Source: an uncultured Gammaproteobacteria bacterium (GTDB taxonomy: Bacteria; Patescibacteriota; Patescibacteriia; UBA11705; DATKZF01). Taken from it: DNA of 64,000 nt. Where the stretch lies: NCBI GenBank assembly GCA_964411255.1, contig CAYPKD010000002.1, forward strand, positions 34,100 through 98,099, read 5' to 3'. Positions 19,199 through 33,535 of the stretch are shown here, piece by piece. A program made the position numbers and the translations under genes. The notes under the pieces were generated by a model. That model had not been told where the DNA came from and did no database searches. It was given only the letters and a program-made list of their open reading frames with translations. The stretch's first letter is position 1, and each line of letters begins with the position of its first letter.

Positions 19199-19318
19199 AA
19201 AAAAATTGTGAGCCTTGGAAAATTTTCTGAGGTTCGTTTTTATTTTAAAAAACTTTACATAAAATTTCATTAATGTTAATTTAATCTTACCAGTCAATCA
19301 GACTGAAAGGAGGAAAAA

Positions 19319-19639: not shown

Positions 19640-19892
19640 ACTGCTTCCATGTAAGCCAAAAATTTTCAAAAAGGGCACTCTTGTTTTTGAAACACACAGT
19701 CTTTCATCAGATGAAATGGAAGCCTGGGTAAAAAAGGTTGCAAAGCTGTCTGGCCAGCCAGTGGACTGGCATTATTACGGAGGCATTGCCTGCGTTTTAG
19801 CCTTGGGTAATCTTGATAAAGTTAATGCTGCAATTGAGCAATTGATGCCAGAGCATGATGCTCTAAAAGAAAAGGCCCTTGGTAGGGTTTAA
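19632..19892 (+). CDS. hypothetical protein
   Basis: RBS gaggaag then ATG overlapping upstream stop by 8 nt. Confidence 0.35.
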   Translation: MAELLPCKPKIFKKGTLVFETHSLSSDEMEAWVKKVAKLSGQPVDWHYYGGIACVLALGNLDKVNAAIEQLMPEHDALKEKALGRV

Positions 19893-19929
19893 AAACCGTC
19901 TGATTCAAAGTTAGGCGGTATTTTAATTG

Positions 19930-19987
19930 TTGACAAAAAGTAAATGGTTTGATATAAATACATATTGCCAGTGCCCAAAAAGGAGGT
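19930..19987 (+). promoter_or_regulatory. cassette module A1: TTGACA-17-TGaTATAAAT promoter + conserved leader + AGGAGGTG SD
   Basis: Near-identical module recurs at 20351, 20815, 29445, 29762, 30270, 30633, 31082. Confidence 0.65.
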
Positions 19988-19992
19988 GTGAT

Positions 19993-20295
19993 ATGAATGA
20001 AAGTGAAAAAGCTACAGCGCATGCATTAAAGTTTAACATTGAACTTATTATTGATATGCTTGGTGAATTTATCCATCAGTCAGGACATAAGGATGTTTTA
20101 TCTGTGATGGAGCAATGGAAAAGAGTTGAGATATTTATAAATTTGATGAAAAAAATGATTATTCCTGATGAACTTCGTGGGCAAGTCATCAGTAGTCTTA
20201 AGCAATGTGTTAGTATTGCCAACACCAGCCTGATTGCCAGGGGGTTGAGAAACCTGATCAAAAAACTGGAGCAGGAAAAAGAAAAAGCTGCGTAG
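19993..20295 (+). CDS. cassette ORF A1, 100-aa helical protein
   Basis: ATG 6 nt after SD; upstream extension in ORF track covers promoter DNA. Confidence 0.5.
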   Translation: MNESEKATAHALKFNIELIIDMLGEFIHQSGHKDVLSVMEQWKRVEIFINLMKKMIIPDELRGQVISSLKQCVSIANTSLIARGLRNLIKKLEQEKEKAA

Positions 20296-20315
20296 AAGCA
20301 GCCTTATTCTATAAT

Positions 20316-20346
20316 AATCGCTTGGCTCAAAGCCTGGCGGTTTTTT
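20316..20346 (+). terminator. cassette terminator (ggctcaaagcctggcgg + T6)
   Basis: Variant of recurring cctgggcggttttt terminator. Confidence 0.5.
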
Positions 20347-20350
20347 GTTA

Positions 20351-20411
20351 TTGACAGGTTAGGAATGATTTGATATAAATAAATATCGCAATTCTACGAC
20401 CAGCAAGGAGG
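20351..20411 (+). promoter_or_regulatory. cassette module A2
   Basis: ttgaca ggttaggaatgatttga tataaataaatatcgc ... aaggagg. Confidence 0.65.
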
Positions 20412-20418
20412 ACATAGA

Positions 20419-20697
20419 ATGCAGAAGTGGTATATTGTTATTATTAAGGATGAGGGTGAATTTGAGGTTGATTTCACTGAAGTAGATCCAAGAGATTTTT
20501 GTAAAGACGGTGAATTCGAATTGATTTCCAGCTGTGCTGTGCCTCCTTCAGCTATAGGATCTGTAGAGGCAATTTTTAAGTTAATGGAAACAATTGGGCT
20601 AGAGTCACCATTTGTGGATGACCTTTTCGCATGGTTTCGTGAAGTGGGCAACATAATCCTCGAAGCTGGCAGAAAGCTGCCACCTCGGGACGAGTAA
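20419..20697 (+). CDS. cassette ORF A2, 92 aa
   Basis: SD aaggagg 7 nt upstream. Confidence 0.5.
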   Translation: MQKWYIVIIKDEGEFEVDFTEVDPRDFCKDGEFELISSCAVPPSAIGSVEAIFKLMETIGLESPFVDDLFAWFREVGNIILEAGRKLPPRDE

Positions 20698-20726
20698 TAT
20701 GCTCTAATTTTCTTTTCTCATAACTG

Positions 20727-20789
20727 CTCGACTCAAAGTCTGGGCGGTTTTTTATTAACGCCAGCCTTCACATAAAGTTATGGCTGGCA
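20727..20789 (+). terminator. cassette terminator (gtctgggcggtttttt) followed by second hairpin gccagccttcacataaagttatggctggc
   Basis: T-run at 20747-20752. Confidence 0.5.
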
Positions 20790-20814
20790 GGCAAAAACGC
20801 AAAAGATTTAATCC

Positions 20815-20873
20815 TTGACAGACAAAATTTAGTTTGATATAAATACATATTGCCAATGCCCAAAAAGGGGGTG
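20815..20873 (+). promoter_or_regulatory. cassette module A3 (preceded by AAAACGCAAAAG motif)
   Basis: ttgaca gacaaaatttagtttga tataaatacatattgccaatgcccaaaaagggggtg; leader nearly identical to A1. Confidence 0.65.
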
Positions 20874-20877
20874 TGAA

Positions 20878-21387
20878 ATGAGCGTCAATTTTCTAGACCT
20901 ATTGATTGTATTTTGTGAGCAGGCTAAGACAATAGATGAAATTGTAACAGAGTTAAAAAAGCATCTTACTGATGGTAAAAAAGCTGCCCAATTACTAATC
21001 GAAGATAGGATTCGTGGAGGGTATATACAAAAGGTTGTCATATCTGAAGGTGAGAGATTTGAGCTTACACAAGCTGGACGTGATGAATTGGAAAAGATTA
21101 AATTAGGTAAACCTGATGAGATTGATAGGCTCACTATGGAAGATGCAATGATTTTCATTTGTGAACAAGCTAGAACAATAGAAGAAATTGCGACAAAATT
21201 TGAAGGGTTTGTTTGTGTTAGTAAAGAAAGTATGAGAAAAGAAATAGTCCCTGCCTTAATTGCATTTAATACTGATAGGAGGGGTTATATGCAAAAGGTC
21301 GATACATCTGATGGTGAGAAGTATGGGCTTACAAAAAAAGGAATTATTTTTATGAAAAGGCTAAAATCATCTAAGCGAACTCCTTAA
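20878..21387 (+). CDS. cassette ORF A3, 169 aa, internal tandem duplication of an ~80-aa module
   Basis: FCEQAKTIDEIVTELKK... repeated as FICEQARTIEEIATKFE...; ...RGGYIQKV.. / ..RRGYMQKVDTSDGEKYGLTKKG. Confidence 0.55.
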   Translation: MSVNFLDLLIVFCEQAKTIDEIVTELKKHLTDGKKAAQLLIEDRIRGGYIQKVVISEGERFELTQAGRDELEKIKLGKPDEIDRLTMEDAMIFICEQARTIEEIATKFEGFVCVSKESMRKEIVPALIAFNTDRRGYMQKVDTSDGEKYGLTKKGIIFMKRLKSSKRTP

Positions 21388-21422
21388 TCGTGCATGACTC
21401 TCTTAAAGTAAATTATAGACAA

Positions 21423-21493
21423 CCCGCTTAGGAAAAATTTCTGGGCGGTTTTTTATTTTAAAAAATAAAAAAACGGCCTGGCGGCCGCTTTTA
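21423..21493. terminator. cassette terminator cccgcttaggaaaaatttctgggcggtttttt plus bidirectional hairpin aacggcctggcggccgctttt
   Basis: Also serves minus-strand gene ending 21494. Confidence 0.55.
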
Positions 21494-21712
21494 TTATAAT
21501 TGGATTTCAAATTTATCAACGCCTTTTTCCTTTAGCTTCTCAAAAACTTCACCCATTGGCATGTTCATAAAATCTTCTAAGCTGGTGTCTTCAGAAATAA
21601 TCCCTGTTTCTTTGGCAGATTTGTACGCAGCTTTATACATAAGCTGACTTGCCATTTCTTCATTAGGACTGCCAAGCTCCCTGTCTTTTGGAATAAATTT
21701 TTCTTCTGTCAT
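21494..21712 (-). CDS. hypothetical small protein
   Basis: ORF only. Confidence 0.4.
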   Translation of the reverse strand: MTEEKFIPKDRELGSPNEEMASQLMYKAAYKSAKETGIISEDTSLEDFMNMPMGEVFEKLKEKGVDKFEIQL

Positions 21713-21716
21713 ATTT

Positions 21717-22265
21717 TTATTTAAATTTAATTGAGCTCATGATTGTGTCAAATTGTTTTTCTATAGTCTCTGTATCTTCAGTGTCAGCTGCGCTGGACCA
21801 GAATCGTAAATGATTTTCATCATCTGAAAATGAATAGTGAAATTCATTGACAAAGCCCTCAGGATCGTCAATTGCTCTGCCTTTGTATTGAATAGTGAAT
21901 TTGATACCGTCAAGTTTATTCAGAGTAACATTTTCTGAAGAAATTATTTCACCGCAGGCATCAGTGTCTTTGCAAAGCATTTGAATATTATCTTTTTCCC
22001 ACTGGAGTAATTGAGCCTGATCTTTCTTTGCTCTTGGAGTAATCTGATAAACAATTTGATTAAATGATTGGCCATCTTTTGCCTTGACCAAGCCGCTTTC
22101 TGCAATATGTGGTGCAGGCAAAGTAAAACTAAAGTGAGTATTATTAAAAACGCTTTCTTTTTGTGTCTCTTCTTGTTGAATAGTATCAACTGGTTTTGTT
22201 TGTTGTTTGCAGCCGGTAATTACAAATGCCAGGCAAATAATTAGGATTGGAATTATTTTTTTCAT
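21717..22265 (-). CDS. lipoprotein, unknown function
   Basis: Signal peptide + ITGCK lipobox. Confidence 0.5.
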   Translation of the reverse strand: MKKIIPILIICLAFVITGCKQQTKPVDTIQQEETQKESVFNNTHFSFTLPAPHIAESGLVKAKDGQSFNQIVYQITPRAKKDQAQLLQWEKDNIQMLCKDTDACGEIISSENVTLNKLDGIKFTIQYKGRAIDDPEGFVNEFHYSFSDDENHLRFWSSAADTEDTETIEKQFDTIMSSIKFK

Positions 22266-22281
22266 AAAGTTTATTGATTAT

Positions 22282-22743
22282 TTATGAAGCTAGTTTATAA
22301 ATGTAATAAATTATTGCAACAATGGCTGCAAGGGCAAGCAGGATTTTTATAAACGTGAAACTACCACCGACTTTGATAGGTTTTGGCTTGTCATTTAGAA
22401 AAGGCTGCGATGGACTGTCTGGCTTTTGGCGATTTTTGCCAATTGTAACAAGAGGCGGCTTTTTCTGATCTATTTTGTTTCCATTTAATTGTATATCTAA
22501 TGGTTGGCCCTTGACTGAAGAACTTTTTATCTTTTTAAATTCTGCAACAACTTCATTCCAGTTGTTAAAGCTCTTGCCATTTATCTTTAGTTTTTTTACA
22601 TCAATATTTTCAATCACATCTGGAATATTATTTTGATTTTTATCTATAATGCGCTGAACGATTTTTGGCAGTCCGCCTAAGCTGCCAAAGACAAGCTCTT
22701 TTGGATCTGAATTGTCTGGTTTTTGATTTAGAGGTTGATCCAT
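22282..22743 (-). CDS. C-terminally membrane-anchored protein
   Basis: Single TM at C-terminus. Confidence 0.45.
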   Translation of the reverse strand: MDQPLNQKPDNSDPKELVFGSLGGLPKIVQRIIDKNQNNIPDVIENIDVKKLKINGKSFNNWNEVVAEFKKIKSSSVKGQPLDIQLNGNKIDQKKPPLVTIGKNRQKPDSPSQPFLNDKPKPIKVGGSFTFIKILLALAAIVAIIYYIYKLAS

Positions 22744-22758
22744 ATTTTTCTATGTTAT

Positions 22759-23469
22759 TTATTTTAAACAAGACATTATTGTTTCTCTGGCAATTCTATC
22801 ATGGAATTTAATATTTTTAAATCCAATTTTTTTCATTTCAGCAGCAGATTCATTTTCTTTCATAATAATATCTGGATGACGGTCTTCTTGCTCATGTTTT
22901 ATTGCTGTTTCTGCCACTTTTTTATTTGAAATTGATTTTAATCTGGAAACAGCTTCATCAAATGATTTTTGTTCTTTCTCAGGATCATCATAAACATATT
23001 TATCCATATTAACAAAAATTCCATTTGATTTTAAAATTCTATAAATTTTTTTTAATAATTCTTTGCGTTCAGTTTTAGTGAAATTGTGAATTGTCCAAAA
23101 AGAGGTGACTGCAGTAAAGCTTGAGGATTCCAAGGTTTTTATATATTTAAATATGTCTTCACAGACTGGTATTACATTTTTACTTTTAATATATTGTTTT
23201 AAATTTTTTTTTAGTCTTTTTATCATTCTCTTATCATTATCAACTGCAAATATCGTAATCGATTGGTTTTTTTCTAATATATACCTTAATTCTTCACCAG
23301 TCCCGCTGCCAATATCAATTATTTGTAAATCTTTTTCCTGAGCAATATGATTATTTACAATTTCTGCTGCCTTTTTTTTCAATTTTGAAATTTGAGGATA
23401 AGCTTCAAGCACTAAATCATATTCCTCAAGCATTTCATCCGGATATATTTCATCTTTTATATTGACCAT
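22759..23469 (-). CDS. class I SAM-dependent methyltransferase
   Basis: IIDIGSGTGEEL motif I; Rossmann-like pattern. Confidence 0.7.
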   Translation of the reverse strand: MVNIKDEIYPDEMLEEYDLVLEAYPQISKLKKKAAEIVNNHIAQEKDLQIIDIGSGTGEELRYILEKNQSITIFAVDNDKRMIKRLKKNLKQYIKSKNVIPVCEDIFKYIKTLESSSFTAVTSFWTIHNFTKTERKELLKKIYRILKSNGIFVNMDKYVYDDPEKEQKSFDEAVSRLKSISNKKVAETAIKHEQEDRHPDIIMKENESAAEMKKIGFKNIKFHDRIARETIMSCLK

Positions 23470-23472
23470 AAA

Positions 23473-23844
23473 TTACTTTTGAAACTTTTGTTCAATTCGC
23501 TGTTTTAATAATTGATATCTTTGAGCAGTTTTTGCTTGAATTGCTGATTGGCTGTTTAGAATTTCATCTCTTGATTTAATTTTATCTTGGCAAATTTTTG
23601 TATCTTTTGCAAATTGCATTTTTGTTAAATCAATTTTTTTTCCATCTGGCAGTTTATTCCAATAATGGTTTGTATGCTCACAATACAATATTTCACCATT
23701 AAAATAATGCTGAATAATTAAAGCAGTGACGGCGCACTGGCCGAGTGCGGGATTTTCAGCAGTCCATTGATCAGCCAGTTTTGGATAGCATGTGTCTTTA
23801 TCCCAGGATTGTTTGATTGCTTTTTCTACGTGTTTGATATCCAT
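23473..23844 (-). CDS. hypothetical protein
   Basis: ORF; ATG at 23844 preferred over TTG at 23901. Confidence 0.4.
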   Translation of the reverse strand: MDIKHVEKAIKQSWDKDTCYPKLADQWTAENPALGQCAVTALIIQHYFNGEILYCEHTNHYWNKLPDGKKIDLTKMQFAKDTKICQDKIKSRDEILNSQSAIQAKTAQRYQLLKQRIEQKFQK

Positions 23845-23927
23845 AATTATTGATTTATAATTGACAAATAATGGTGGTCTTTGGTAAGATAGCTTAAACA
23901 ATGGAAATCAACAATGGAGGATAAGCC

Positions 23928-24305
23928 ATGACACGAGATGAGCTGTTACAGGAAATCCACAAACATTTGCCTGTGTTGGCTAATGAGGGCTGCCAAATAC
24001 GGGAGCTCAAGGAAATTGCTCCAGGCATAATGGTTGCATTTGATGAGAGCGATGGTACATTTATTTACTATTTTGAAACATCTATTTATGGATTCAGAAC
24101 TGATCGGAATGCCCAAATGTGGGGTGCAAATGATCAAAGTGGGCAGCCAGAAGGATGCTCTGAAGGTATCCATGCCTTTGTTTGTGGAATTAATAGCCCT
24201 GACAACTGGTCAGATGTTGTTTTCGAAGCGAAAAATAGGCTGATAACAAAAGAGGGTGAGTATATTAACTGGCATAAAAAACCTGTTGAAATATCTCTTC
24301 AATAA
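23928..24305 (+). CDS. hypothetical protein
   Basis: RBS aatggagg. Confidence 0.45.
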   Translation: MTRDELLQEIHKHLPVLANEGCQIRELKEIAPGIMVAFDESDGTFIYYFETSIYGFRTDRNAQMWGANDQSGQPEGCSEGIHAFVCGINSPDNWSDVVFEAKNRLITKEGEYINWHKKPVEISLQ

Positions 24306-24355
24306 AGTGGCTTAAAGCTTTTTGTAGGCCTTCTCAAAACAATGAGAAGGTTTTT

Positions 24356-24751
24356 TTATTCATTCCTAAAAGTCTCAACAATCTTAGGAAATCCTTCCCA
24401 AGGCATTCCTTCCCATAATGCAAAACTTACTGCGTTTTGAGAAACATTTATTTGAAGTGAAGGGGTTACGTCCTGAACAAATTCACCAGTTTCGTCTGTT
24501 TTTACAATATGGACAATTGTTTTTTGAGGATTCTCTGGATCTGCTGTTTCATTTACTCCATAATCTTGCGGGTGTTTAAAGCTAAAGCCTTTGTTGCTTT
24601 TATATTCAATCCAGTTTTCAAGATCAGTATATTCTGTCAATGGCATAGTGTCAGCAGGCTGCTGCGTTTTTTGCCAATAATAAACTCCGCCACCAGTAAT
24701 GATTGCAGTAATAATTACCGTTAGAATGATTTTAGATTTTGTTGATTTCAT
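24356..24751 (-). CDS. N-terminally anchored secreted protein
   Basis: TM/signal anchor. Confidence 0.45.
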   Translation of the reverse strand: MKSTKSKIILTVIITAIITGGGVYYWQKTQQPADTMPLTEYTDLENWIEYKSNKGFSFKHPQDYGVNETADPENPQKTIVHIVKTDETGEFVQDVTPSLQINVSQNAVSFALWEGMPWEGFPKIVETFRNE

Positions 24752-24760
24752 AGGTATTGT

Positions 24761-25246
24761 TTATTTTTTATTTTTTTCAGAAATTAGTTTCATCGCATCA
24801 GGCGGAATAGATGACTCATAATGCACTTCATGGATTTCAGCTGCTTCAAAAGGATCAGGATTGTTTGGGTCAGCTTTCATCAAATAGTTGTGGGTGCGGG
24901 AAGGTGTAAGATATTGTGTGTCTATTTCTAAAACAACCAGATTGCCTTTTTTTGCTTTTTGCGTTTCTTCAGCTACGCCCATTGCAAAATCAATGTCATC
25001 TGATAAGGAGACAACTTCCCGGTCTTCAAGTATTAATTTGGACGGATCAAGGCCTTCTTTCAATATTTGCTGCGCGTTTTGCCGCGTGGTTACATGATAA
25101 AGTTTTTCCGGAAGAGGTTTTCGCCGTTTTTCAAAATAAGCTTCTTTTTCATCAATCTTTTTAAGCTGCTTTTTCATTGCTTCTGTGAATTCATCAATTG
25201 ATTTCATTAATTCCTCAGGATTTACTTGGGGTTGTTCTTTATTCAT
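24761..25246 (-). CDS. hypothetical protein with LYHVT..ILKEGL motif (tentatively Tpt1/KptA-like ADP-ribosyltransferase fold)
   Basis: Resembles LYHGT..GL block of RNA 2'-phosphotransferases; N-terminal catalytic R/H residues not evident. Confidence 0.3.
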   Translation of the reverse strand: MNKEQPQVNPEELMKSIDEFTEAMKKQLKKIDEKEAYFEKRRKPLPEKLYHVTTRQNAQQILKEGLDPSKLILEDREVVSLSDDIDFAMGVAEETQKAKKGNLVVLEIDTQYLTPSRTHNYLMKADPNNPDPFEAAEIHEVHYESSIPPDAMKLISEKNKK

Positions 25247-25258
25247 AAAATTAAATTT

Positions 25259-25819
25259 TCATTCAAGCAGCAGCATTATTGCTTCATATTTTGGTTTGAT
25301 CATTTTTTTTGATTGTTCAAAATGCAATTGATTCCACTTGCGCTCCAATTTTTCTTTAACAGCAATTTTTGCAGACTCCCTTGATTTATGTCCTTCCCAG
25401 CAAAAAGCTGCCTGAAAAATTCCGGGGATATCATCAAAGCAGGCCAGTGTATCAGCTTCAGCAATAATTTTTTCTTCAATGCTTTCTCTAGTGCTATGTT
25501 GAGATCCGCGATGGTGCAGGATGCATCTTTTTATTAATTCAATTTTTTCAGCAGGATATTCAAGGTCTTTTAATTTTTGTTCTGCAATCTTTGCGCCAGT
25601 AAGATGATGATCTTTTCGGCCATGTCTGATTGATCCAATGTCATGCAGCCAGGCAGCTAATAAAACAATTTCTTTATCACCTCCTAACTCGTCTGTGAGT
25701 TTTTCTGAATATTTAGCCATTGGTATAAAATGATAAATGAAAGCATCATACCCATAAGTACTTTCCGGTTTTTTACATTCAGTTTTAACAAAATTTTTAA
25801 TTTCTTGGATAATATTCAT
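25259..25819 (-). CDS. HD-domain phosphohydrolase
   Basis: LAAWLHDIGS...HHRGSQH. Confidence 0.65.
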   Translation of the reverse strand: MNIIQEIKNFVKTECKKPESTYGYDAFIYHFIPMAKYSEKLTDELGGDKEIVLLAAWLHDIGSIRHGRKDHHLTGAKIAEQKLKDLEYPAEKIELIKRCILHHRGSQHSTRESIEEKIIAEADTLACFDDIPGIFQAAFCWEGHKSRESAKIAVKEKLERKWNQLHFEQSKKMIKPKYEAIMLLLE

Positions 25820-25825
25820 AAAAAT

Positions 25826-26314
25826 TTAAACCAGCGCAAATAAAATCATATGATTATGCCCAAATTTTTTAGCGCATCCTGGACAATATGCATAATGAAC
25901 ATAATATTTTTTTGCTTTTTTATTTTGCTTAGCTAAATATTCATCCATAACTTTAATATGCTTTGGCACAGAATTGTATGGGCCATCAAAAACTTTTGCA
26001 ATAAATGTACCAGAAAGAGCAGTGTTATTTGCTTCAGGCACATTGCCAGTGACAGAAAGGTAAATTTCAGATTTAAATGGAGATGGATCAGTGAATAATA
26101 CTAAAGTGTTTTCTAGGTTTTCATCCATCTTTTTTGCATCTTCAGCCAACTTGGTCATTTTGGTTAATCTTTTACCAATCATTGGTGGAAAGGGCATGTG
26201 AAATAGTGTTGGCACTGATTCTTTTATAAAAAGTTTGTTTTTCCAGTTGAATGTTTTTTCATCCCAGCGTTCTGGATGAAATTTCGGGCAGCATTCGTCA
26301 TTGTTGTTGTTCAT
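25826..26314 (-). CDS. hypothetical protein
   Basis: ORF, C-terminal CPGC..H.H. Confidence 0.4.
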   Translation of the reverse strand: MNNNNDECCPKFHPERWDEKTFNWKNKLFIKESVPTLFHMPFPPMIGKRLTKMTKLAEDAKKMDENLENTLVLFTDPSPFKSEIYLSVTGNVPEANNTALSGTFIAKVFDGPYNSVPKHIKVMDEYLAKQNKKAKKYYVHYAYCPGCAKKFGHNHMILFALV

Positions 26315-26349
26315 ATATTTTTTATTTTTGAGCTATATTCATAAATTAT

Positions 26350-26718
26350 TTAAGAGGAAAAATATTCTTTATAATAAGAAATTATTATATAACATTTTAC
26401 CGCCTCGCCTCTTTTTCGGGTACACTTTTCGCCTTCAATGCTATTGTAATCAGCGCAGCTGCCGCGAGTGGAATTTTTATCAGGGTACAGGCACAGTTTT
26501 TTAGTGCATTCATCATTATAGGTGCAGGCTTTGCCAGCGTCTTTAGCTTTAAATTCGCAATTACTGCTGAAGGAATGGGCGAATATTTTTCCGCCTCTTT
26601 GCACGCAAAAGTTGCATGAGGAATTATCGCAAAGCCATCCCTCTTTTTCAGATGATTGCAAAGAACAACCAGATAATAATATGATACTGATAAATAAGAA
26701 TAAAATTGTTTTTTTCAT
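26350..26718 (-). CDS. Cys-rich lipoprotein
   Basis: LSGCS lipobox; 12 Cys. Confidence 0.45.
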   Translation of the reverse strand: MKKTILFLFISIILLSGCSLQSSEKEGWLCDNSSCNFCVQRGGKIFAHSFSSNCEFKAKDAGKACTYNDECTKKLCLYPDKNSTRGSCADYNSIEGEKCTRKRGEAVKCYIIISYYKEYFSS

Positions 26719-27014
26719 ATTTTTTTATTTTTAGGTTTAATAAAAACATAAACTGCTTTTTGATTTTGGTCCAGCCCTTCAACATCAACCAATTTAACTA
26801 CTATATCAACCTCATCTTTATATTTATCAATGTATTCTTTTATAATTTCTTCTTTTGTGCGAAATGGAATTGCAACAAATCGCGCGCCTTTAGTAAATTT
26901 GAATTTAGTCAGTGGTTCTTGAGTAACAAGGGTAAAGCCCTGCGCTTCCAGCTCTTTTTTTCTTTGTTCAAATGGAGATTCTTTTGCCCAAGGACTCTTT
27001 TCTTGTTTTGTCAT
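26715..27014 (-). CDS. hypothetical protein
   Basis: ORF overlapping downstream start by 4 nt. Confidence 0.4.
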   Translation of the reverse strand: MTKQEKSPWAKESPFEQRKKELEAQGFTLVTQEPLTKFKFTKGARFVAIPFRTKEEIIKEYIDKYKDEVDIVVKLVDVEGLDQNQKAVYVFIKPKNKKI

Positions 27015-27038
27015 AGTCCTTATATGAATAATTGATTT

Positions 27039-27419
27039 TTACTTTATTAATTCAAGCCTTTCCTCAAATTCTATTCTGCTTTGCTCTAAATTTTGTGGAT
27101 AGCTTACTAATTCTTCGCCAGTGAATTCATCGTAGTAATTTGTCCTTTCTCTCATACCAGCTTCATCAATAGATGGATCATCAATTAAAGAATATTCCTT
27201 GTATTTTGTTATACAGCTTTTTCTTTTTTTACTATAGTATGTTCCGAAAAATGAGTATGTTGCTTTGCTATCATTTTCTGCATTCATTTCCTCAATCCTG
27301 TTTTGTGCAATATTGATATATTCACTGCATTTTTTTTTAAGAGTCTGTTCTGATTCTGCGCAGCCTGAAAGGGTTAGTAGAGAGAGAATTATTATGGGGA
27401 AAGTGATTATTTTTTTCAT
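27039..27419 (-). CDS. lipoprotein
   Basis: LSGCA lipobox. Confidence 0.45.
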   Translation of the reverse strand: MKKIITFPIIILSLLTLSGCAESEQTLKKKCSEYINIAQNRIEEMNAENDSKATYSFFGTYYSKKRKSCITKYKEYSLIDDPSIDEAGMRERTNYYDEFTGEELVSYPQNLEQSRIEFEERLELIK

Positions 27420-27437
27420 ATGAGTATTTTATTTCAC

Positions 27438-28064
27438 TTATGATTTGGATGCGCTGCTTTTATTTTGCGTTTTGGTCTTTGGTACAAATTTACCATTTTT
27501 TATGTCAAAACGTTTAAATACAGATACTGTGCCTTCAATAACTTGATGCAAGCTTGATATAGCTTTTATAGCATCCTTGTGAGGATTTCTTCCACGGCCA
27601 TGAGCATACTTGTTTCGTAGTTTTGCAATTTTTGTAAATTGACTCTTAAGATCGTTTTCAATCACTTTAGTTGCAATTAATAGTTCTCTAACTGTTTCTA
27701 AGGGGATTTGTTCTAATTGCTTTCCTTGTTCTGCTGTGGGGGGGAGACCCATTTTACCTTTCCTAAATAGTATTGTAACTCTCAAAAGGTCTTGGGCAAT
27801 CCTTTCTGCGGTTATTCCGCACATAACAACACAAGAATAAAACTTTCCTTCTATATAAAGCTGTCTCGTCTCAAGTAGTATATTAGAATATCTCCCAGGA
27901 TGTGTCATTATAGCGGGGAGTTCTTTTGTTCTTTTTATAATATCATCAATATTTTTCTTAAATTCTTGTATTATGAACTCTTTATAATTTTCTTCTTCGC
28001 CTGGGATTTTTAATACATTTGGAGTTAGGTCTGTCCATACGTCGATTGTTTTTTTTCCTGGCAT
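27438..28064 (-). CDS. HEPN-motif protein (putative RNase / abortive-infection-like)
   Basis: AKLRNKYAHGRG contains the R-x4-H HEPN signature in a helical context. Confidence 0.45.
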   Translation of the reverse strand: MPGKKTIDVWTDLTPNVLKIPGEEENYKEFIIQEFKKNIDDIIKRTKELPAIMTHPGRYSNILLETRQLYIEGKFYSCVVMCGITAERIAQDLLRVTILFRKGKMGLPPTAEQGKQLEQIPLETVRELLIATKVIENDLKSQFTKIAKLRNKYAHGRGRNPHKDAIKAISSLHQVIEGTVSVFKRFDIKNGKFVPKTKTQNKSSASKS

Positions 28065-28069
28065 ATTTT

Positions 28070-28273
28070 TTATTTTTCAGTAAAACCCTTATTAATATAG
28101 TATTTTCTGAAAAAATCATCTGCGTCTTTTTTGGTTCCAAATTCATTTTTTGGAAAACCTACTTCTTGAACATCAATTTTACTGCCATTATTCAAATAAT
28201 TAAAGAGAGTACCAGCTGGTATCCATTTTTTTGATTTTTCTAATTGGTGAGATATTACTTTAAACTTTTTCAT
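28070..28273 (-). CDS. small protein upstream of HEPN gene
   Basis: 6 nt from HEPN gene start. Confidence 0.4.
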   Translation of the reverse strand: MKKFKVISHQLEKSKKWIPAGTLFNYLNNGSKIDVQEVGFPKNEFGTKKDADDFFRKYYINKGFTEK

Positions 28274-28825
28274 ATTTTGGAGTTATTATTGATTGACAAA
28301 TGAAATATTTATAGTAAAATATACTTGTCCCTTTGGGGCATTTATAATTAACTTTCAATTATATGAAAGCAATATTGAATGTCCCTGGCGCGTAACTTTT
28401 TTTAGAACTATGTCGCAGTGAGTGGCTGCGTTATAAACACTTTAAAACCATCGTTTCAATGAGGCTGCTAGCATCGGGGACAAAATATTCCTCACCTAAA
28501 GGAGGAAAGTAGCAGCGAATATGAAAAACTCTTGTATCAGCAGGAGCTGATAGTGATTTTCGTGGAGAAAACCACGTTAAAAATTTATCATTATCTGTAG
28601 TATTATTACGTAAGGCTTTGGGCAAAGGATCAGGCAGCTGATAATGCTTGGTTTTTTTGTTATTTTATTTAAAAACGTTCAGAAAAAAGATCTATCAAGA
28701 ACCTTGGAATTTCAGCAAACCATTCATCTGGATAAAGCCATGCTATCACAAACCAACATAGTATTACGATTATGAGCATGATAATAATTGCAAGAATAGT
28801 TAATAGTGTCTCTGTTAGCTTTTTT

Positions 28826-29377
28826 TTAATTTTTATATTTTTTTTCATAAGATCTATTATTATAATCAATTTGGTTTGAGATGAAGTTTTTCATTTCCTG
28901 GAACTGAATGTTGTCTATTCTTACAGGCTTGACAATTTGCCAGAAAGAAAAAAATATTGATAATGATAATGTTACGATTGTAATATACAAAGTATATTTT
29001 GCAATAATAATTGCTTTGATTGCATGTTTGTTTGCTTTTTTTGAAAATTCTCTAGCTTCTTTTAATTCAAGGTAATCAAGATATTTGAATTTTGAATCAT
29101 AGCTTATAATATATTTAGTTTTTTCACTATAAAAATATGGATCTGATTTTATACAATAGAATGGAGTATCATAATTTGAATATTTGCCTACTCTTTGTTT
29201 TTCTTTATTGCTGTTTGCGTTGTCGAGATACATTTTTACTAAATCCTCTTCCCACTTAGTTAACATAAAATCGTCATTTTTCATGATCGTATCATACGTA
29301 AATCCATCTTTATATTTTTCACAAAATTTTAACAATCGAATATAAAAGTCAGATGTCTCTTTTGAGTTTTTTGTCAT
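28826..29377 (-). CDS. hypothetical protein with C-terminal TM
   Basis: ORF. Confidence 0.4.
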   Translation of the reverse strand: MTKNSKETSDFYIRLLKFCEKYKDGFTYDTIMKNDDFMLTKWEEDLVKMYLDNANSNKEKQRVGKYSNYDTPFYCIKSDPYFYSEKTKYIISYDSKFKYLDYLELKEAREFSKKANKHAIKAIIIAKYTLYITIVTLSLSIFFSFWQIVKPVRIDNIQFQEMKNFISNQIDYNNRSYEKKYKN

Positions 29378-29444
29378 ATTGATTTGATACTAAACTTCAC
29401 TTGAATTTTAGCAGGTTTAGGTTATATGATCAATTTTAAACGGC

Positions 29445-29503
29445 TTGACAACATAAAAATGGTTTGATATAAAGAAATGTCGCTAAAGTAGCGAAAGGAG
29501 GTG
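29445..29503 (+). promoter_or_regulatory. cassette module B1
   Basis: ttgaca acataaaaatggtttga tataaagaaatgtcgctaaagtagcgaaaggaggtg. Confidence 0.65.
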
Positions 29504-29507
29504 TGAC

Positions 29508-29735
29508 ATGAGAATTGAAAGTAAGATTGCCTTATGCTGGATAGCTCTTTTTATAGCATGGCTTTCATTAATCATTTCTGGTCATTATTTTAGTGGAGAG
29601 TTGGGAGTAAAGCTGGCTATAACGGGAATAATCTTCGCCGTTGTCTGGTTTATTTCAGGAGTTAGTATTCTCTTAATTAGCTTATCTAGAGCTAGGACAA
29701 ATCAAACATTTGATCCATTTAGCCAATCCGTTTAG
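29508..29735 (+). CDS. cassette ORF B1, 75-aa two-TM protein
   Basis: SD-ATG spacing 5. Confidence 0.5.
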   Translation: MRIESKIALCWIALFIAWLSLIISGHYFSGELGVKLAITGIIFAVVWFISGVSILLISLSRARTNQTFDPFSQSV

Positions 29736-29756
29736 GAAATATCCTGAGCGGTTTTT
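29727..29756 (+). terminator. cassette terminator ccgtttaggaaatatcctgagcggttttt
   Basis: Variant of ccgcctaggaaaaatcctgggcgg hairpin. Confidence 0.5.
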
Positions 29757-29761
29757 GATTC

Positions 29762-29818
29762 TTGACAGACTGAAAATAGTTTGATATAAATAAGTATCGC
29801 TAATACGGCGAAAGGAGG
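29762..29818 (+). promoter_or_regulatory. cassette module B2
   Basis: ttgaca gactgaaaatagtttga tataaataagtatcgctaatacggcgaaaggagg. Confidence 0.65.
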
Positions 29819-29823
29819 TTGGG

Positions 29824-30237
29824 ATGACAAAAAAAGTCAATTTAATACTTGAATTTGTCTGCCTGGTTATTGCTTTTATAATAACATTTGGTTTCTATGC
29901 AGCAGGGAGATTGATTTCAGCTCAAGAGGCATTTGATTTTGTGCCGCTTGCCTTCGGCTCGGTTGGCTTCATTTTTAGCTTTTGGGTTTGGAGCAAGATC
30001 TCTCAGATTTCAGAAAAAAATAATTCAGCAGATAGGTTGCAAGCGGGAGTGCCGCTTATTATTACTCTAAGCACTGCGGCTGGCATGCTGATCGGATTGG
30101 TCGCCTGCAGGGCGGCAATTAATATGGGAGCACATTTAGCAATTGGCATCATCCTGCCAGTAGCCGGGATTGTCTTGGGCATGGCCCTTGGATTGCGAAT
30201 TAGATCTATTCTGTTAAAAAAAAGTGTTAATCTATAA
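29824..30237 (+). CDS. cassette ORF B2, 137-aa four-TM protein
   Basis: Hydrophobic helices. Confidence 0.5.
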   Translation: MTKKVNLILEFVCLVIAFIITFGFYAAGRLISAQEAFDFVPLAFGSVGFIFSFWVWSKISQISEKNNSADRLQAGVPLIITLSTAAGMLIGLVACRAAINMGAHLAIGIILPVAGIVLGMALGLRIRSILLKKSVNL

Positions 30238-30240
30238 TTC

Positions 30241-30264
30241 AAGCACTCCATTGAGTGCTTTTTG
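30241..30264 (+). terminator. cassette terminator type 2 (gcactccattgagtgc + T5)
   Basis: Same hairpin at 31455-31477. Confidence 0.55.
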
Positions 30265-30269
30265 TATTC

Positions 30270-30326
30270 TTGACACCCTGAAAATGGTTTGATATAAATA
30301 AATATCTCCAAGGCAGCGGAAAGGAT
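30270..30326 (+). promoter_or_regulatory. cassette module B3
   Basis: ttgaca ccctgaaaatggtttga tataaataaatatctccaaggcagcggaaagga. Confidence 0.65.
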
Positions 30327-30333
30327 GTGTGTT

Positions 30334-30531
30334 ATGAGTAGTAGTCAGCAAAGGGAAGAAATGATTCAGATTTTTGATTGTTTTGCGTCGTCTAAGTGGA
30401 GAGGGGGCATGTGTGATCATATTTGCAGCCGATGTGCCTATGCGGGAAACAGGAGATGGGTTCTAAAAAAAGAGTGGCAGAAATATGCTAACCGATACCC
30501 AACTGATTTTGATGACTTTGATAATTGCTAG
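30334..30531 (+). CDS. cassette ORF B3, 65-aa Cys-rich protein (possible zinc ribbon)
   Basis: CDHICSRCAYAGN...C; alternative start 30325. Confidence 0.45.
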   Translation: MSSSQQREEMIQIFDCFASSKWRGGMCDHICSRCAYAGNRRWVLKKEWQKYANRYPTDFDDFDNC

Positions 30532-30552
30532 GAATATGATGAAAAATTAACT

Positions 30553-30582
30553 TGCTTGGAAAGAATCCTGGGCGGTTTTTTA
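30553..30582 (+). terminator. cassette terminator cttgcttggaaagaatcctgggcggtttttt
   Basis: Followed by three AAAACGCAAAA(G) motifs 30583-30630. Confidence 0.55.
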
Positions 30583-30632
30583 AACGCAAAAACGCAAAAT
30601 TTGACAATTGTATTAGTGAAAACGCAAAAGAT

Positions 30633-30691
30633 TTGACAAGCTAATATTATTTGATATAAATAAGTATCTCACAAACCAAACGAAAGGAGGT
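30633..30691 (+). promoter_or_regulatory. cassette module B4 (16-nt spacer)
   Basis: ttgaca agctaatattatttga tataaataagtatctcacaaaccaaacgaaaggaggtg. Confidence 0.6.
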
Positions 30692-30696
30692 GCGGC

Positions 30697-31023
30697 ATGG
30701 AAGCAGAAGTAATAGAAATCAATGGGGCATCCATGATTGATAAAACTTTTGCAGAAATATTAGAAACAATAGTCCAGAGAGTTCGGGAAGCCTCAGGAGA
30801 GAAAATAGTTGTTTCTTTGGAAATAGGTCTTTATAAATTCTTAGCTGATACTGCGGGTAGAAGGCTATGTTCAGGAGGTGTATTAGATGGAGCTCCACTG
30901 GGGCTGATTCAATGGCTTAAGGATTTATGTAGAGATGAAGGATTATCGGTCAATGTGGGGTATGCATGGCATGGTGAATTTCGCGATCGCTTTAAAAAGT
31001 GTCTTACATTCGAAAAAATCTGA
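30697..31023 (+). CDS. cassette ORF B4, 108 aa
   Basis: SD-ATG spacing 5. Confidence 0.5.
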   Translation: MEAEVIEINGASMIDKTFAEILETIVQRVREASGEKIVVSLEIGLYKFLADTAGRRLCSGGVLDGAPLGLIQWLKDLCRDEGLSVNVGYAWHGEFRDRFKKCLTFEKI

Positions 31024-31047
31024 CTTGAATATTCATGTATTTACTAA

Positions 31048-31077
31048 TCCGCCTAGGAAAAATCCTGGGCGGTTTTT
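31048..31077 (+). terminator. cassette terminator ccgcctaggaaaaatcctgggcggttttt
   Basis: 9-bp stem, T5. Confidence 0.6.
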
Positions 31078-31081
31078 ATCC

Positions 31082-31136
31082 TTGACAATCTGAAAATGGT
31101 TTGATATAAATAATTATTGCTAAGACGGTGAAAGGA
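31082..31136 (+). promoter_or_regulatory. cassette module B5
   Basis: ttgaca atctgaaaatggtttga tataaataattattgctaagacggtgaaagga. Confidence 0.65.
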
Positions 31137-31144
31137 TGTGCGGC

Positions 31145-31438
31145 ATGAGGGACAAAAAGCGAAAGCCGCCGGCACATGTGGTTATTCTTGACATGTTGAA
31201 GTATGAGCTGCAACGTGCTAGGGATATCAGTGAGGTCGGCCCAAAGACAAAGTTGACGCAACAGTTTTCTGATGTGAGACTTTTACTCATTGCATTAGGA
31301 AGAATGTTTATTCCAAAAAGATCTAAAGCAAAGGTAATGCGGGGACTTCAAAGACTCAAATCCATGTGTACGCCTAAAATGCATCAAGGCAATGAAATGC
31401 TCGAAGTAGCAATCAAGCGCATCGAGGAGGATTATTAG
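31145..31438 (+). CDS. cassette ORF B5, ~97-aa basic protein
   Basis: ATG 31145 (MRDKKRK) preferred; alternative 31136. Confidence 0.45.
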   Translation: MRDKKRKPPAHVVILDMLKYELQRARDISEVGPKTKLTQQFSDVRLLLIALGRMFIPKRSKAKVMRGLQRLKSMCTPKMHQGNEMLEVAIKRIEEDY

Positions 31439-31454
31439 TTGTATTAATTGTTAA

Positions 31455-31477
31455 CGCACTCCACTGAGTGCTTTTTT
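31455..31477 (+). terminator. cassette terminator type 2 (gcactccactgagtgc + T6)
   Basis: Followed by decayed promoter-like gtatccttgttttctg. Confidence 0.55.
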
Positions 31478-31630
31478 GTATCCTTGTTTTCTGTAGGAAT
31501 TTATGTTAAAATTTACACAATCTTTCCTTATTAAGAGGGCTTAAGAAGTCTTGATAAGGCTTAAGAAGGCAAAGGAGGGCTGAAGGAAGGGAAAGATGAT
31601 TAGATATTATCGTTTATGAAAAATATTAGA

Positions 31631-31665
31631 AGCTTTTGTCGTCCTTCGCATAAGGCTTCGGACGA
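31631..31665 (+). promoter_or_regulatory. hairpin ttgtcgtccttcgcataaggcttcggacgacaa in lepA leader
   Basis: Same gtcgtcc...ggacgac stem as repeats at 52895 and 53328. Confidence 0.4.
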
Positions 31666-31681
31666 CAAGTATAATTAATTT

Positions 31682-33535
31682 ATGGAAAAGATTCGCAATT
31701 TTTGCATTATCGCTCATATAGATCATGGGAAATCAACTCTTGCTGATCGACTTTTGGAATTAACCGGAACTGTTGAAAAACGGAAAATGAAAGAACAGCT
31801 TTTAGATACAATGGAGCTTGAAAGGGAGCGGGGGATTACTATTAAATTGCAGCCAGCACAAATGAAGTATAAAGAATATATTCTAAATCTTATTGACACG
31901 CCTGGTCATGTTGATTTTACTTATGAAGTTTCGAGATCCTTAGCAGCAGTTGAAGGTGCTATTTTATTAGTAGATGCAACTCAGGGTGTTCAGGCGCAGA
32001 CATTGAGTAACTTATATTTAGCATTGGATGCTGATTTGGAAATTATTCCAGTATTAAATAAAATCGATTTGCCTGCAGCCAATGTTGAAAAAGTAAAGAA
32101 CGAAATTGTAAATTTGCTTGGCTGTAATGAAGATGAAATATTGGCAGTTTCAGCAAAGACAGGGAAGGGTGTTGAGGCTGTTTTGGATAAAGTGGTTGAA
32201 AAAGTCCCTGCTCCGGCCTTCGCTAAAGCTACGGCCGGCAGGCCAAAGGGAAATGTTGATGAAAATTTACAGGCTTTGATTTTTGATTCTTTTTATGATG
32301 AATATAAAGGGGTGGTGGCTTATTGCAGAATTGTAAATGGTAAGATTTCTAAAAATGACGAAATTTTATTTATGGCGCCAAATAAAAAGAGTGAATCTCT
32401 TGATGTTGGCGTGTTAAAGCCTGATATGAATTCAATTGATGAATTAAAAGCTGGGGATATTGGATATATTATTACAGGACTGAAAGACCTTGAGCTTTGT
32501 AAAGTAGGTGATACCATTACTTTAGCAAAAAATCCTGCTGATAAGCCATTGCCAGGCTATCAGGAAGTGAAGCCAATGGTTTATGCTGGAATATTTTGTA
32601 AAGAAGGTTCTGATTTTAATGATTTGCGGGATGCCATTTATAAATTAAAATTAAATGATGCTGCTTTAGTTTATGAACCTGAAACTTCACCAGTTCTGGG
32701 ATTGGGATTTAGATGTGGGTTTTTAGGCCTTTTACATTTAGAAATATTTCAGGAAAGATTAAGGCGAGAGTTTGATTTGGATATTATTGTCACTGTACCA
32801 AGTGTTGCATTTAAAGTTGTTTTAAAAGAGAATGCTAAGATTCCAAAAGAAGTAAAGCCAGAACAAATGATTTCTGACAGGGAATATATAATAAATAATC
32901 CAAATGATTTGCCTGATCCAACTGTGTATGAGCGAATTGAAGAACCGATTATGAAAGTAGATATTGTCTGCCCAAAAGATTATATTGGTAATGTAATGGA
33001 ATTGGTTACAGATAAAAGGGGAGAGTATTTGAATACGGAATATGTTGATGATGAAATGACAATTTTGCATTATCAAATGCCCTTAGCAAAGGTGATTGTG
33101 GACTTTTATGATCAATTAAAAACAGTTAGTTCAGGATATGCGTCATTAAATTATGATTTTGAAAAATATGAGCCAACAGATGTGGTTAAGCTTGATGTAT
33201 TGGTGGCTGAAGAAAAAGTTGATGCCTTTTCAACCATTGTATATAAAGACGAATCGTTTCGGGTTGGTAAAAAGATAGTTAAAGCTTTAAAAGACGTTAT
33301 ACCGCGTCAGATGTTTGTGATAAAATTGCAGGCAGCAGTAGGTGGTAAAATTATTGCTGGAGAAAGAATTTCTGCAATGCGAAAAGATGTGACTGCCAAA
33401 TTGTATGGCGGTGACTGGACCAGACGGCAAAAGCTTTTAGAAAAGCAGAAAAAGGGAAAGAAAAAGATGATGGAAATGGGTAAAGGAAAGGTGAATATTC
33501 CGCCAGAGGCGTTTATTGCGGTTTTGAAGCGGTGA
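31682..33535 (+). CDS. lepA: translation elongation factor 4 (LepA)
   Basis: FCIIAHIDHGKSTLADRLL, DTPGHVDF, NKIDL GTPase motifs plus LepA C-terminal domain. Confidence 0.92.
   Translation: MEKIRNFCIIAHIDHGKSTLADRLLELTGTVEKRKMKEQLLDTMELERERGITIKLQPAQMKYKEYILNLIDTPGHVDFTYEVSRSLAAVEGAILLVDATQGVQAQTLSNLYLALDADLEIIPVLNKIDLPAANVEKVKNEIVNLLGCNEDEILAVSAKTGKGVEAVLDKVVEKVPAPAFAKATAGRPKGNVDENLQALIFDSFYDEYKGVVAYCRIVNGKISKNDEILFMAPNKKSESLDVGVLKPDMNSIDELKAGDIGYIITGLKDLELCKVGDTITLAKNPADKPLPGYQEVKPMVYAGIFCKEGSDFNDLRDAIYKLKLNDAALVYEPETSPVLGLGFRCGFLGLLHLEIFQERLRREFDLDIIVTVPSVAFKVVLKENAKIPKEVKPEQMISDREYIINNPNDLPDPTVYERIEEPIMKVDIVCPKDYIGNVMELVTDKRGEYLNTEYVDDEMTILHYQMPLAKVIVDFYDQLKTVSSGYASLNYDFEKYEPTDVVKLDVLVAEEKVDAFSTIVYKDESFRVGKKIVKALKDVIPRQMFVIKLQAAVGGKIIAGERISAMRKDVTAKLYGGDWTRRQKLLEKQKKGKKKMMEMGKGKVNIPPEAFIAVLKR

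Follow-up and report, generated by a model that had tools for sequence, protein, structure and literature searches.

Small orphan genes behind a shared terminator-promoter-leader shell form two arrays beside lepA in a Patescibacteria chromosome

Organization of the two arrays

We analysed a 64,000-nt stretch of contig CAYPKD010000002.1, which is referred to as the window, together with 10 kb beyond its right end, so that ~74 kb of the genome was covered in all. Upstream of lepA (31682-33535, + strand; called start 31682), eight copies of one promoter-leader module lie in two plus-strand arrays, and each copy precedes a single small open reading frame (ORF). We refer to the ORF as the cargo, and to the module with the terminator upstream of it as the shell. 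Array A contains units A1, A2, and A3, in which the −35 hexamer TTGACA starts at 19930, 20351, and 20815, respectively. Array B contains units B1 to B5, with −35 starts at 29445, 29762, 30270, 30633, and 31082.

The context is a cellular chromosome of the Patescibacteria (candidate phyla radiation, CPR), not a phage. LepA is closest to Patescibacteria proteins, with named matches at ~70% that include Falkowbacteria and Kuenenbacteria, and the order lepA, recJ, spermidine synthase-like gene, RNase H gene, nitroreductase gene, pilM is common to a Patescibacteria metagenome-assembled genome. Genes for ribosomal proteins, rpoA, mutS, mutL, and alaS surround the window. Assemblies of several samples in ENA, JGI, and Logan contain the same sequence in the same layout; therefore the arrays are no assembly artefact and are invariant within the species.

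Array A is headed by three small plus-strand genes with other promoters (18884-19892), namely the Cys-rich U1 (18953-19198), U2 (19319-19639), and U3 (19632-19892). Shell A1 (19895-19992) is composed of the U3 terminator (19895-19919) with its T-run, the −35 element, a −10 element reading TGaTATAAA, the leader, and the Shine-Dalgarno (SD) sequence AAAGGAGGTG. Cargo A1 (19993-20295) is a helical protein of 100 amino acids (aa) with no family match. Shell A2 (20319-20418) starts with a degenerate type-1 terminator (CGCTTGGCTcaaAGCCTGGCGG-T6) and has the most divergent leader; an orthologous shell is present in L018, a contig from a relative. Cargo A2 (20419-20697, 92 aa) has an L018 orthologue at 74%. 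Shell A3 (20726-20877) retains the 3' arm and T-run of a degenerate type-1 terminator (CTGGGCGGTTTTTT at 20740), followed by the box AAAAACGCAAAAGATTT at 20793, the −35 element, and a leader 84% identical to that of A1. Cargo A3 (20878-21387, 169 aa) contains an internal tandem duplication. The array is closed by a type-1 terminator, CCGCTTAGGAAAAATTTCTGGGCGG-T6 (21424-21453). An extra hairpin, GCCAGCC-n15-GGCTGGC, occupies 20761-20789 between the A2 terminator and the A3 box and promoter, and has no counterpart at other units.

As originally predicted, the two arrays flank a reverse-strand island (21494-29377). It is composed of ~17 mostly reverse-strand small accessory genes, including methyltransferase, YunG, HD, Bact_hydrolase, HEPN-like, Tpt1-like, and lipoprotein genes, and belongs to the same variable region as the arrays.

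Array B begins with module B1 (29445-29507), which has no upstream terminator and is divergent from the reverse-strand gene 28826-29377. Cargo B1 (29508-29735) encodes 75 aa with two predicted transmembrane (TM) helices, and its stop codon lies within the stem of the following terminator. In shell B2 (29728-29823), that type-1 terminator (29728-29756) abuts the −35 element, and the leader contains the hairpin UCGCU/GGCGA. Cargo B2 (29824-30237, 137 aa) has four predicted TM helices. Shell B3 (30241-30333) carries a type-2 terminator (GCACTCCATTGAGTGC-T5) and a GTATTCTTGACA junction before its −35, and leads into a Cys-rich cargo of 65 aa with an acidic C-terminus (30334-30531; alternative start 30325). 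Shell B4 (30552-30696) has a type-1 terminator (30552-30581), then three AAACGCAAAA boxes and a duplicated TTGACA (30582-30632), and after its −35 a 16-nt spacer and a divergent leader; its cargo (30697-31023) is an alpha/beta protein of 108 aa. Shell B5 (31049-31144) comprises a type-1 terminator (CCGCCTAGGAAAAATCCTGGGCGG-T5) and the module of cargo B5 (31145-31438; alternative start 31136), a basic, helical protein of 97 aa. Array B ends with a type-2 terminator and GTATCCTTG (31456-31486), leading into lepA's own promoter. The eight cargoes thus span 65-169 aa, the range given by the original prediction.

The module is confined to the arrays in the analysed region

We built an nhmmer profile on 16 modules from four genomes, half of them taken from the window and half from relatives. 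At E≤10 it recovered the eight sites and nothing else in the window (E-values between 2e-19 and 2e-11), and it had no match in the 10 kb past the right end. The exact pattern TTGACA-N12-TTTGATATAAA (29 nt) occurs in seven of the eight units; the remaining one, B4, has a spacer 1 nt shorter. When up to three mismatches were allowed, the pattern matched 11 sites in the window against 1.3 expected; the four non-module sites share the two hexamers only and are without the module spacer and leader. Hence all eight predicted copies are recovered. The MAFFT consensus agrees with the one read originally, except that the 17-nt spacer does not hold at B4. The original prediction would have been refuted by a module that serves as the generic promoter of most genes. 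Within the ~74 kb this is not the case, because lepA uses a different promoter (TTGTTT-17-TAAAAT) and U1 is likewise under another promoter.

The promoter is predicted to be of the sigma-70 type and near consensus, with TTGACA, a 17-nt spacer, and the extended −10 TGnTATAAA. It is followed by a short leader of ~25 nt and a strong SD sequence complementary to the 3' end of 16S rRNA. The homology extends to ATGAG, the first five bases of the ORF, in four of the eight window units and in 9/16 of all modules; AG at +4/+5 is found in just one of 51 other window genes. In the spacer, T21 and the TTTG just before the −10 are kept in all 16 modules, and A18 in nearly all. These invariant spacer and discriminator bases go beyond what a sigma-70 promoter or RNA polymerase requires. 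A short 5-bp dyad, GATAT-N6-ATATC, spans the −10.

We also inspected the leader for RNA structure. A hairpin UCGC-loop-GCGA before the SD looked covarying by eye, and 67% of its cells pair across the 16 modules; however, 171 of 500 shuffles did likewise. It was not predicted by RNAalifold and reaches ≤−4 kcal/mol in 7/16 leaders, and we keep it as an optional feature, not as evidence. The whole window gave no match to Rfam.

A repeat search groups the modules as direct-repeat families of 67-75 nt with 61-89% identity and reveals no terminal inverted repeats. The shells of A1 and A3 are 84% identical over 75 nt and those of B2 and B5 85% over 67 nt, while the remaining pairs range from 61 to 75%. 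Orthologous modules are 71-77% identical between species, and paralogous modules within a genome 53-85%. Paralogues are thus as diverged as orthologues; therefore the module family is old and maintained, with no recent burst of copying. The signal of concerted evolution is mixed, as the A2 module groups with its orthologue and the modules of the related contig L032 group with each other.

Terminators and upstream boxes

The type-1 terminator CTGGGCGGTTTTT (≤1 mismatch) has five sites in the window, all in the arrays, compared with 0.09 expected. The type-2 terminator GCACTCCAYTGAGTGCTTTTT has two sites, again in the arrays only, compared with none expected. Both form hairpins with GC stems of 22-25 nt followed by a T-run. 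A terminator scan found a hairpin with T-run after six of the eight units, and also after U1 and U3. The claim that one of two terminators closes every unit therefore stands for six units, while A1 and A2 are followed by degenerate copies only. Several stems have T in place of a consensus C, which gives G-U pairs workable in plus-strand RNA only; therefore the hairpins fit transcription terminators rather than DNA recombination sites.

Upstream of the −35, only the T-run of the terminator (5-6 T) recurs, plus A-rich AAAACGCAAAA boxes at A3 and B4. The AAACGCAAAA boxes predicted for these two units were found at 20795 (A3) and at 30582, 30590, and 30620 (B4), and a 16-mer, AAAACGCAAAAGATTT, is identical upstream of both. 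The box motif as such is not enriched across the window (23 matches vs 17.5 expected). In L032, 48-49-nt tandem repeats rich in TACAAGAT lie at 445-555 (2 copies) and 1832-2014 (3.7 copies), immediately 5' of the −35 of two modules, which is where A3 and B4 have their AAAACGCAAAAGATTT boxes. These repeats are possible operator arrays.

The spacer bases and upstream boxes are compatible with a regulator and with the co-regulation that the original prediction had raised as one option. One trans-acting factor, a repressor or an activator, might control all units by binding CTGAAAATGGTTTGA in the spacer, the dyad at the −10, or the boxes further upstream; shell conservation would follow from this control and cassette turnover would be incidental. 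The factor could be A3 itself, which has a secondary structure resembling a helix-turn-helix and a weak match to a DNA-binding family of PHROGs (E=0.0045). We regard this explanation as possible yet short of probable. The invariance of non-required positions in 16 modules from four genomes speaks for it, as do the dyad, the boxes, the equivalent placement of the L032 repeats, and the fact that the modules are old rather than recent copies. However, no regulator was identified, the boxes occur at two of eight units and are absent from relatives, and the dyad is short, its sequence being set in part by the −10 element. Control by a common factor also leaves unexplained the conservation of the terminators and a repeat-flanked indel in array B (see below). 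It is compatible with, and does not exclude, a role of the shells in recombination.

The cargoes are dissimilar, with one possible pair

BLASTP among the eight cargoes and U1-U3 gave no similar pair, in line with the prediction that the cargoes are unrelated. In one case this may not hold strictly. A1 aligns by hhalign with a profile of B5 and the latter's 34% relative from L032 over 57 columns (P=2.5e-5, probability 75%), so that A1 and B5 may be distant paralogues of one family. None of the eight has a significant match in Pfam or PHROGs, and nothing significant was found in NCBIfam for four cargoes, by PADLOC for two, or in a PDB sequence search for A3. Among 5.8 billion proteins, the sole match to A3 is A3 itself, and an exhaustive HMMER scan with B5 over 1.84 billion cluster representatives likewise recovered nothing but the query; a deep search with B2 returned only itself and one 81% orthologue. 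These three, which were searched in depth, are by this measure clade-restricted orphans.

The cargoes are real genes, because the dN/dS ratios of orthologue pairs are 0.42 for B1, 0.19 for B2, 0.36 for A2, and 0.31 for U2, values of purifying selection. Between the same genomes, lepA, recJ, speE, and rnhA have ratios of 0.02-0.08. GC content at third codon positions (GC3) is 0.35-0.46 in several cargo genes, compared with 0.27-0.31 in housekeeping genes.

The internally duplicated protein noted originally is A3, whose tandem duplication is detected at E=3e-13. Its predicted order of helix-helix-helix-strand-strand is winged-helix-like, and its AlphaFold model has a predicted local distance difference test (pLDDT) score of 53 and is unusable. 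The B4 model is of low confidence (pLDDT 62) and gives weak matches to Alba/SpoVS-like folds (E about 0.01, TM-score 0.42-0.45), which we take as a lead only. Both Cys-rich proteins have an acidic/aromatic tail at the C-terminus (DSWDDDW in U1, DFDDFDNC in B3) that resembles partner-binding tails such as that of SSB. U1 also has a borderline match to a treble-clef zinc finger.

The A1-B5 alignment raises the question of serial duplication, in which one ancestral minigene would have been copied repeatedly with its shell kept and its coding part diverged beyond recognition. The reach of shell homology into the ORF (ATGAG) and the 84% identity of the A1 and A3 shells would also fit. We nevertheless rate such an origin as quite improbable. 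Aside from the lengths of 65-169 aa, the cargoes differ in architecture (2-TM, 4-TM, Cys-rich, tandem winged-helix, and alpha/beta), and no other similar pair was seen. Even B2 and a 4-TM protein encoded behind a module on L021, a contig from another relative, are unrelated, and the orthologues are under purifying rather than diversifying selection.

Related genomes carry the module with different cargoes

Relatives were collected by a metagenome scan with a 22-base module pattern, and contigs encoding the closest LepA proteins were then added. Besides the window species, the scan returned two contigs of different genomic background with the full module (spacer and leader), L018 and L021. Three species-level lineages, with lepA at 81-85% nucleotide identity, bear the module directly upstream of lepA and differ in contents. 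The window has B1, B2, B3, B4, and B5. The lineage of L032, L030, and L033 has an 84-aa orphan (X84), B1' (74%), a 181-aa and a 90-aa gene without modules, and B2' (81%); the 90-aa gene is the 34% relative of B5. L021 encodes a 143-aa 4-TM protein, a 103-aa helical protein, and an 81-aa helix-hairpin-helix-like protein, all with the module. The content of array A varies likewise. L018 contains module-U2', module-A2', and then a homologue of the reverse gene 22282-22743, and is without U3, A1, A3, and two island genes. U2 is hence driven by the module in L018 and by another promoter in the window. The expected presence/absence differences are thus seen in content and order between related species, and not within the species, where the arrays are invariant across samples.

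We also considered recent horizontal exchange of cassettes. Cargo dS (0.43-0.52) is slightly below that of housekeeping genes (0.58-0.97), but these are very short genes and the difference is not convincing.

A profile search found no module in L034-L038 (LepA 78-88%). Three of the relatives in this LepA range have a tyrosine recombinase immediately upstream of lepA. It passes the XerA equivalog cut-off (236 vs 220 bits) and fails that of the integron integrase (219 vs 265 bits, in two stretches), which suggests that the IntI-specific insert is missing. We thus read it as a housekeeping Xer recombinase. By tblastn, no tyrosine recombinase is encoded in the window, and this one is at none of the module-bearing loci seen. 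In L034 (204-9865, LepA 78%), the region upstream of lepA contains an XerA-type recombinase, two small orphan ORFs, and a defence-like island with a DUF87 ATPase, SIR2, an AlwI restriction enzyme, two methyltransferases, and RadC. The site upstream of lepA appears to be a long-standing hotspot for accessory genes.

A recombinase beside lepA in relatives (LepA 79-88%) with 219 bits on the integron-integrase model could point to a site-specific array, in which the hairpins would act as attC-like sites. Like integrons, for example the superintegrons of Vibrio with their arrays of Vibrio cholerae repeats, the locus has small unrelated ORFs separated by imperfect palindromes and a content that varies between relatives. 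In integrons, attC sites are 55-140 nt long with R''-L''/L'-R' boxes, and the cassettes are promoterless. Here, by contrast, the palindromes are GC stems of 22-25 nt with T-runs, each cassette has its own promoter, and IntI, attC architecture, attI, and a Pc promoter are absent. Together with the place of the recombinase on the XerA side of the cut-offs and its absence from the window and the module-bearing loci, this makes an integron-like array very improbable.

Shell junctions bound an indel in array B

The alignment of array B with L032 places an indel at shell junctions. L032 2053-2566 corresponds to window 29761-30272, a segment that starts at the B2 −35, includes the B2 terminator, and ends in ...TTTTTGTATTCTTG; the alignment resumes at the B5 terminator, where L032 2536-2718 corresponds to window 31456-31639. 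The overlap, 31 nt at L032 2536-2566, matches the window at both places. Window 30273-31486, which contains B3, B4, and B5, is absent from L032, L030, and L033. In the window, this block is flanked by two copies of GCACTCCAYTGAGTGCTTTTT(T)GTATYCTTG, a direct repeat of 31-33 nt with its left copy at shell B3 (the GTATTCTTGACA junction) and its right copy at 31456-31486; L032 has a single hybrid copy. Such a pattern is the sequence signature of a deletion or insertion by recombination between terminator/promoter-junction repeats. The indel of the A1 cassette relative to L018 also begins at a terminator T-run.

In our reading, which we hold to be probable with some reserve, the units are expression cassettes with shared shells that double as recombination substrates. 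Each lineage-specific shell of ~110-135 bp would consist of terminator hairpin and T-run, promoter, leader, SD, and, in about half, ATGAG. It would make one small orphan gene an autonomous monocistronic unit, insulated from adjacent genes and with probably strong and constitutive expression, and each terminator would double as the upstream boundary of the next unit. The roles of these elements follow from established knowledge of sigma-70 promoters and intrinsic terminators. The shells may further act as homology patches for the loss, gain, and reordering of cassettes, because they are the only sequence repeated among otherwise unrelated cassettes. The outcome would be a hyperplastic region beside lepA in a small clade of Patescibacteria. 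We infer promoter strength, termination, recombination as the mechanism, and cargo function alike. Of the three readings originally offered, the data best support a cassette system in which recombination takes place at the ~100-bp junction, since the shell stays with varying content and the B3-B5 indel falls at the junction. That claim is limited by other indels, in which one or both breakpoints fall outside the shell; neither an excision product nor recombination machinery could be demonstrated.

Several observations weigh against recombination through the shells. The block of 181-aa and 90-aa genes in L032 extends from within the final codons of B1 to a point just short of a type-1 terminator, and nearby indels (two 23S_rRNA_IVP genes, and a transposase-like gene with its neighbour) involve no module. 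No direct sign of recombination or excision was seen, and expression is deduced from the sequence. The age pattern of the modules indicates that they are kept by selection and argues against frequent homogenising exchange. The conserved spacer bases that the promoter does not require are better explained by a binding factor than by recombination. Finally, confinement of the module to the arrays is shown for ~74 kb of the genome only, and the metagenome scan missed one contig holding three modules, so that absence elsewhere is weak evidence.

Comparison with known systems

The closest described system is, by analogy, that of the PeSL (promoter-early stem-loop) cassettes of T4-like phages. PeSLs are ~100-bp terminator/promoter motifs that precede ORFans in hyperplastic regions and are proposed, and partly shown, to mediate modular shuffling via homologous recombination (Arbiol et al., 2010, PMC2839356; Comeau et al., 2014, PMC4122927). 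Both elements are ~100 bp long, with a stem-loop terminator, a strong sigma-70-like promoter, and the SD and start of the next gene, and both are repeated before small ORFans in hyperplastic regions where indels between close relatives are bounded by the motif. The placement here is of this type, since all eight shells precede genes without a family match and the region varies between relatives. They differ in that PeSLs are early promoters of T4-type phages, whereas our arrays lie in a cellular Patescibacteria chromosome and match no viral contig or phage genome. The hairpin here is always 5' of the −35 and has a T-run, whereas PeSL stem-loops vary in position. PeSLs further have an AT-rich tract ahead of the −35; our units have there the T-run of 5-6 T and, at A3 and B4, the A-rich boxes. 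Spacer and leader are conserved here as well, and there is no sequence similarity to PeSLs. Mini-circle formation and promoter and terminator activity belong to the PeSL side, whereas our shell is read from sequence alone.

The shells also resemble putative mobile promoters, in which similar upstream regions of 50-100 nt precede non-homologous genes in one genome (Matus-Garcia et al., 2012, PMC3488235). At the ≥80% identity used there, only A1/A3 and B2/B5 qualify, which is part of the family; the genes are non-homologous, with A1/B5 excepted. The modules differ from mobile promoters in being clustered in two arrays rather than dispersed, tied to a conserved terminator, and conserved across species-level lineages.

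Like a phage moron, each unit is a single small, accessory, variable gene with its own predicted promoter and intrinsic terminator. This part of the proposal that the units are moron-like stands, but they lie in a cellular chromosome without phage genes or prophage context. To our knowledge, morons normally do not share one promoter sequence. The anatomy, identical to that of morons and PeSLs, might still suggest a prophage or early-gene remnant beside lepA, with the shells as early promoters and the cargoes serving host takeover or anti-defence. The small, orphan, fast-evolving cargo, the raised GC3 of several cargo genes, and the defence island at the same position in a more distant relative would agree with such an origin, which we consider unlikely on the following grounds. 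Neither the window nor the island contains a structural, replication, or integrase gene of a phage, and no cargo has a significant PHROG match. The module was not found in 2.9 million viral contigs, and array B has no similarity to 50,697 phage genomes. In three species-level lineages, moreover, the arrays have kept their chromosomal position. The module pattern was also run against GTDB representatives, among which the host species is absent, and hit nothing beyond isolated chance promoters in unrelated taxa.

REP (repetitive extragenic palindromic)/REPIN elements and miniature inverted-repeat transposable elements (MITEs) were considered and rejected. The palindrome GTAGGGACAG..CTGTCCCTAC of the REP-associated tyrosine transposase-like (RAYT-like) gene downstream of lepA is unrelated to the shell, and the modules are without terminal inverted repeats.

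Literature searches, with incomplete coverage, gave no report of such arrays in cellular chromosomes or in CPR/Patescibacteria. In a reduced cellular genome such an array comes as a surprise; for its proposed mechanism there is a clear precedent. If the shells mediate turnover, the locus illustrates how a flexible set of accessory genes is retained in very small genomes, and it would single out a few small membrane, Zn-binding-like, and DNA-binding-like proteins, which evolve fast and are probably expressed at high levels, as candidates for host or phage interaction. The shell would be a candidate source of strong promoter, ribosome-binding site, and terminator parts for organisms without genetic tools. 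More tentatively, a small Patescibacteria clade could maintain a PeSL-like plug-and-play system, in which the terminator-promoter-leader-ATGAG shell captures, expresses, and exchanges orphans without a dedicated recombinase. Exchange would then run between arrays and possibly between co-occurring lineages, and the shell may also be the operator of a lineage-specific regulator. We regard this combination as conceivable rather than probable; if true, it would be a standing gene-gain mechanism for ultra-reduced genomes.

Other features of the window

The lepA leader has a 10-nt tandem repeat, TTAAGAAGGC, in 4-5 copies between promoter and start (window 31531-31590; L032 2611-2659), and its position is conserved between these two species. 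Just 5' of the called start (31682, MEKIRNFC...), window 31616-31700 contains a diverged copy of the lepA start (ATGAAAAATATTAGAAGCTTTTGT..., cf. L032 MKNIRNFC), followed by the hairpin GTCGTCCttcgcataaggcttcGGACGAC. L036 (LepA 88%) has the same insertion. The feature appears to be a small hairpin element that entered the 5' end of lepA and duplicated its first codons, or else an upstream leader ORF. LepA itself varies, as in several relatives (P0004-P0006, P0008; L035 1065-3362) it has 765-778 aa with a PD-(D/E)XK_3 domain (PF13366) inserted inside the GTPase domain. A stand-alone PDDEXK_3 gene lies in the window at 17908-18315, at the edge of the variable region.

Directly downstream of lepA, the RAYT-like gene (33537-34112) encodes a Y1 transposase-like protein that scores 52 bits in NCBIfam, below the cut-off of 80. 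It holds a palindrome, GTAGGGACAGAATACTATTCTGTCCCTAC, within its own reading frame, and the gene and its neighbour (34127-35050, − strand) are absent from L030 and L032. Further downstream, the 23S_rRNA_IVP (PF05635) genes at 37198-37569 and 39207-39608 show precise presence/absence relative to L030 and represent a further class of small inserted gene in this genome, without a module.

The mutS-mutL spacer (59600-61550) is a noncoding region of 1.9 kb with a richer GC content (0.44-0.47). It gave no Rfam match even at E≤0.1. Its edges carry paired palindromes on both sides (GTAGGGACAG..CTGTCCCTAC and a second hairpin), and it contains a near-consensus promoter at 59773 (TTGACA-17-TATAAT) and three copies of TTACAATACAGTTCCTGCGG. 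The spacer may be a structured RNA or a mobile noncoding element.

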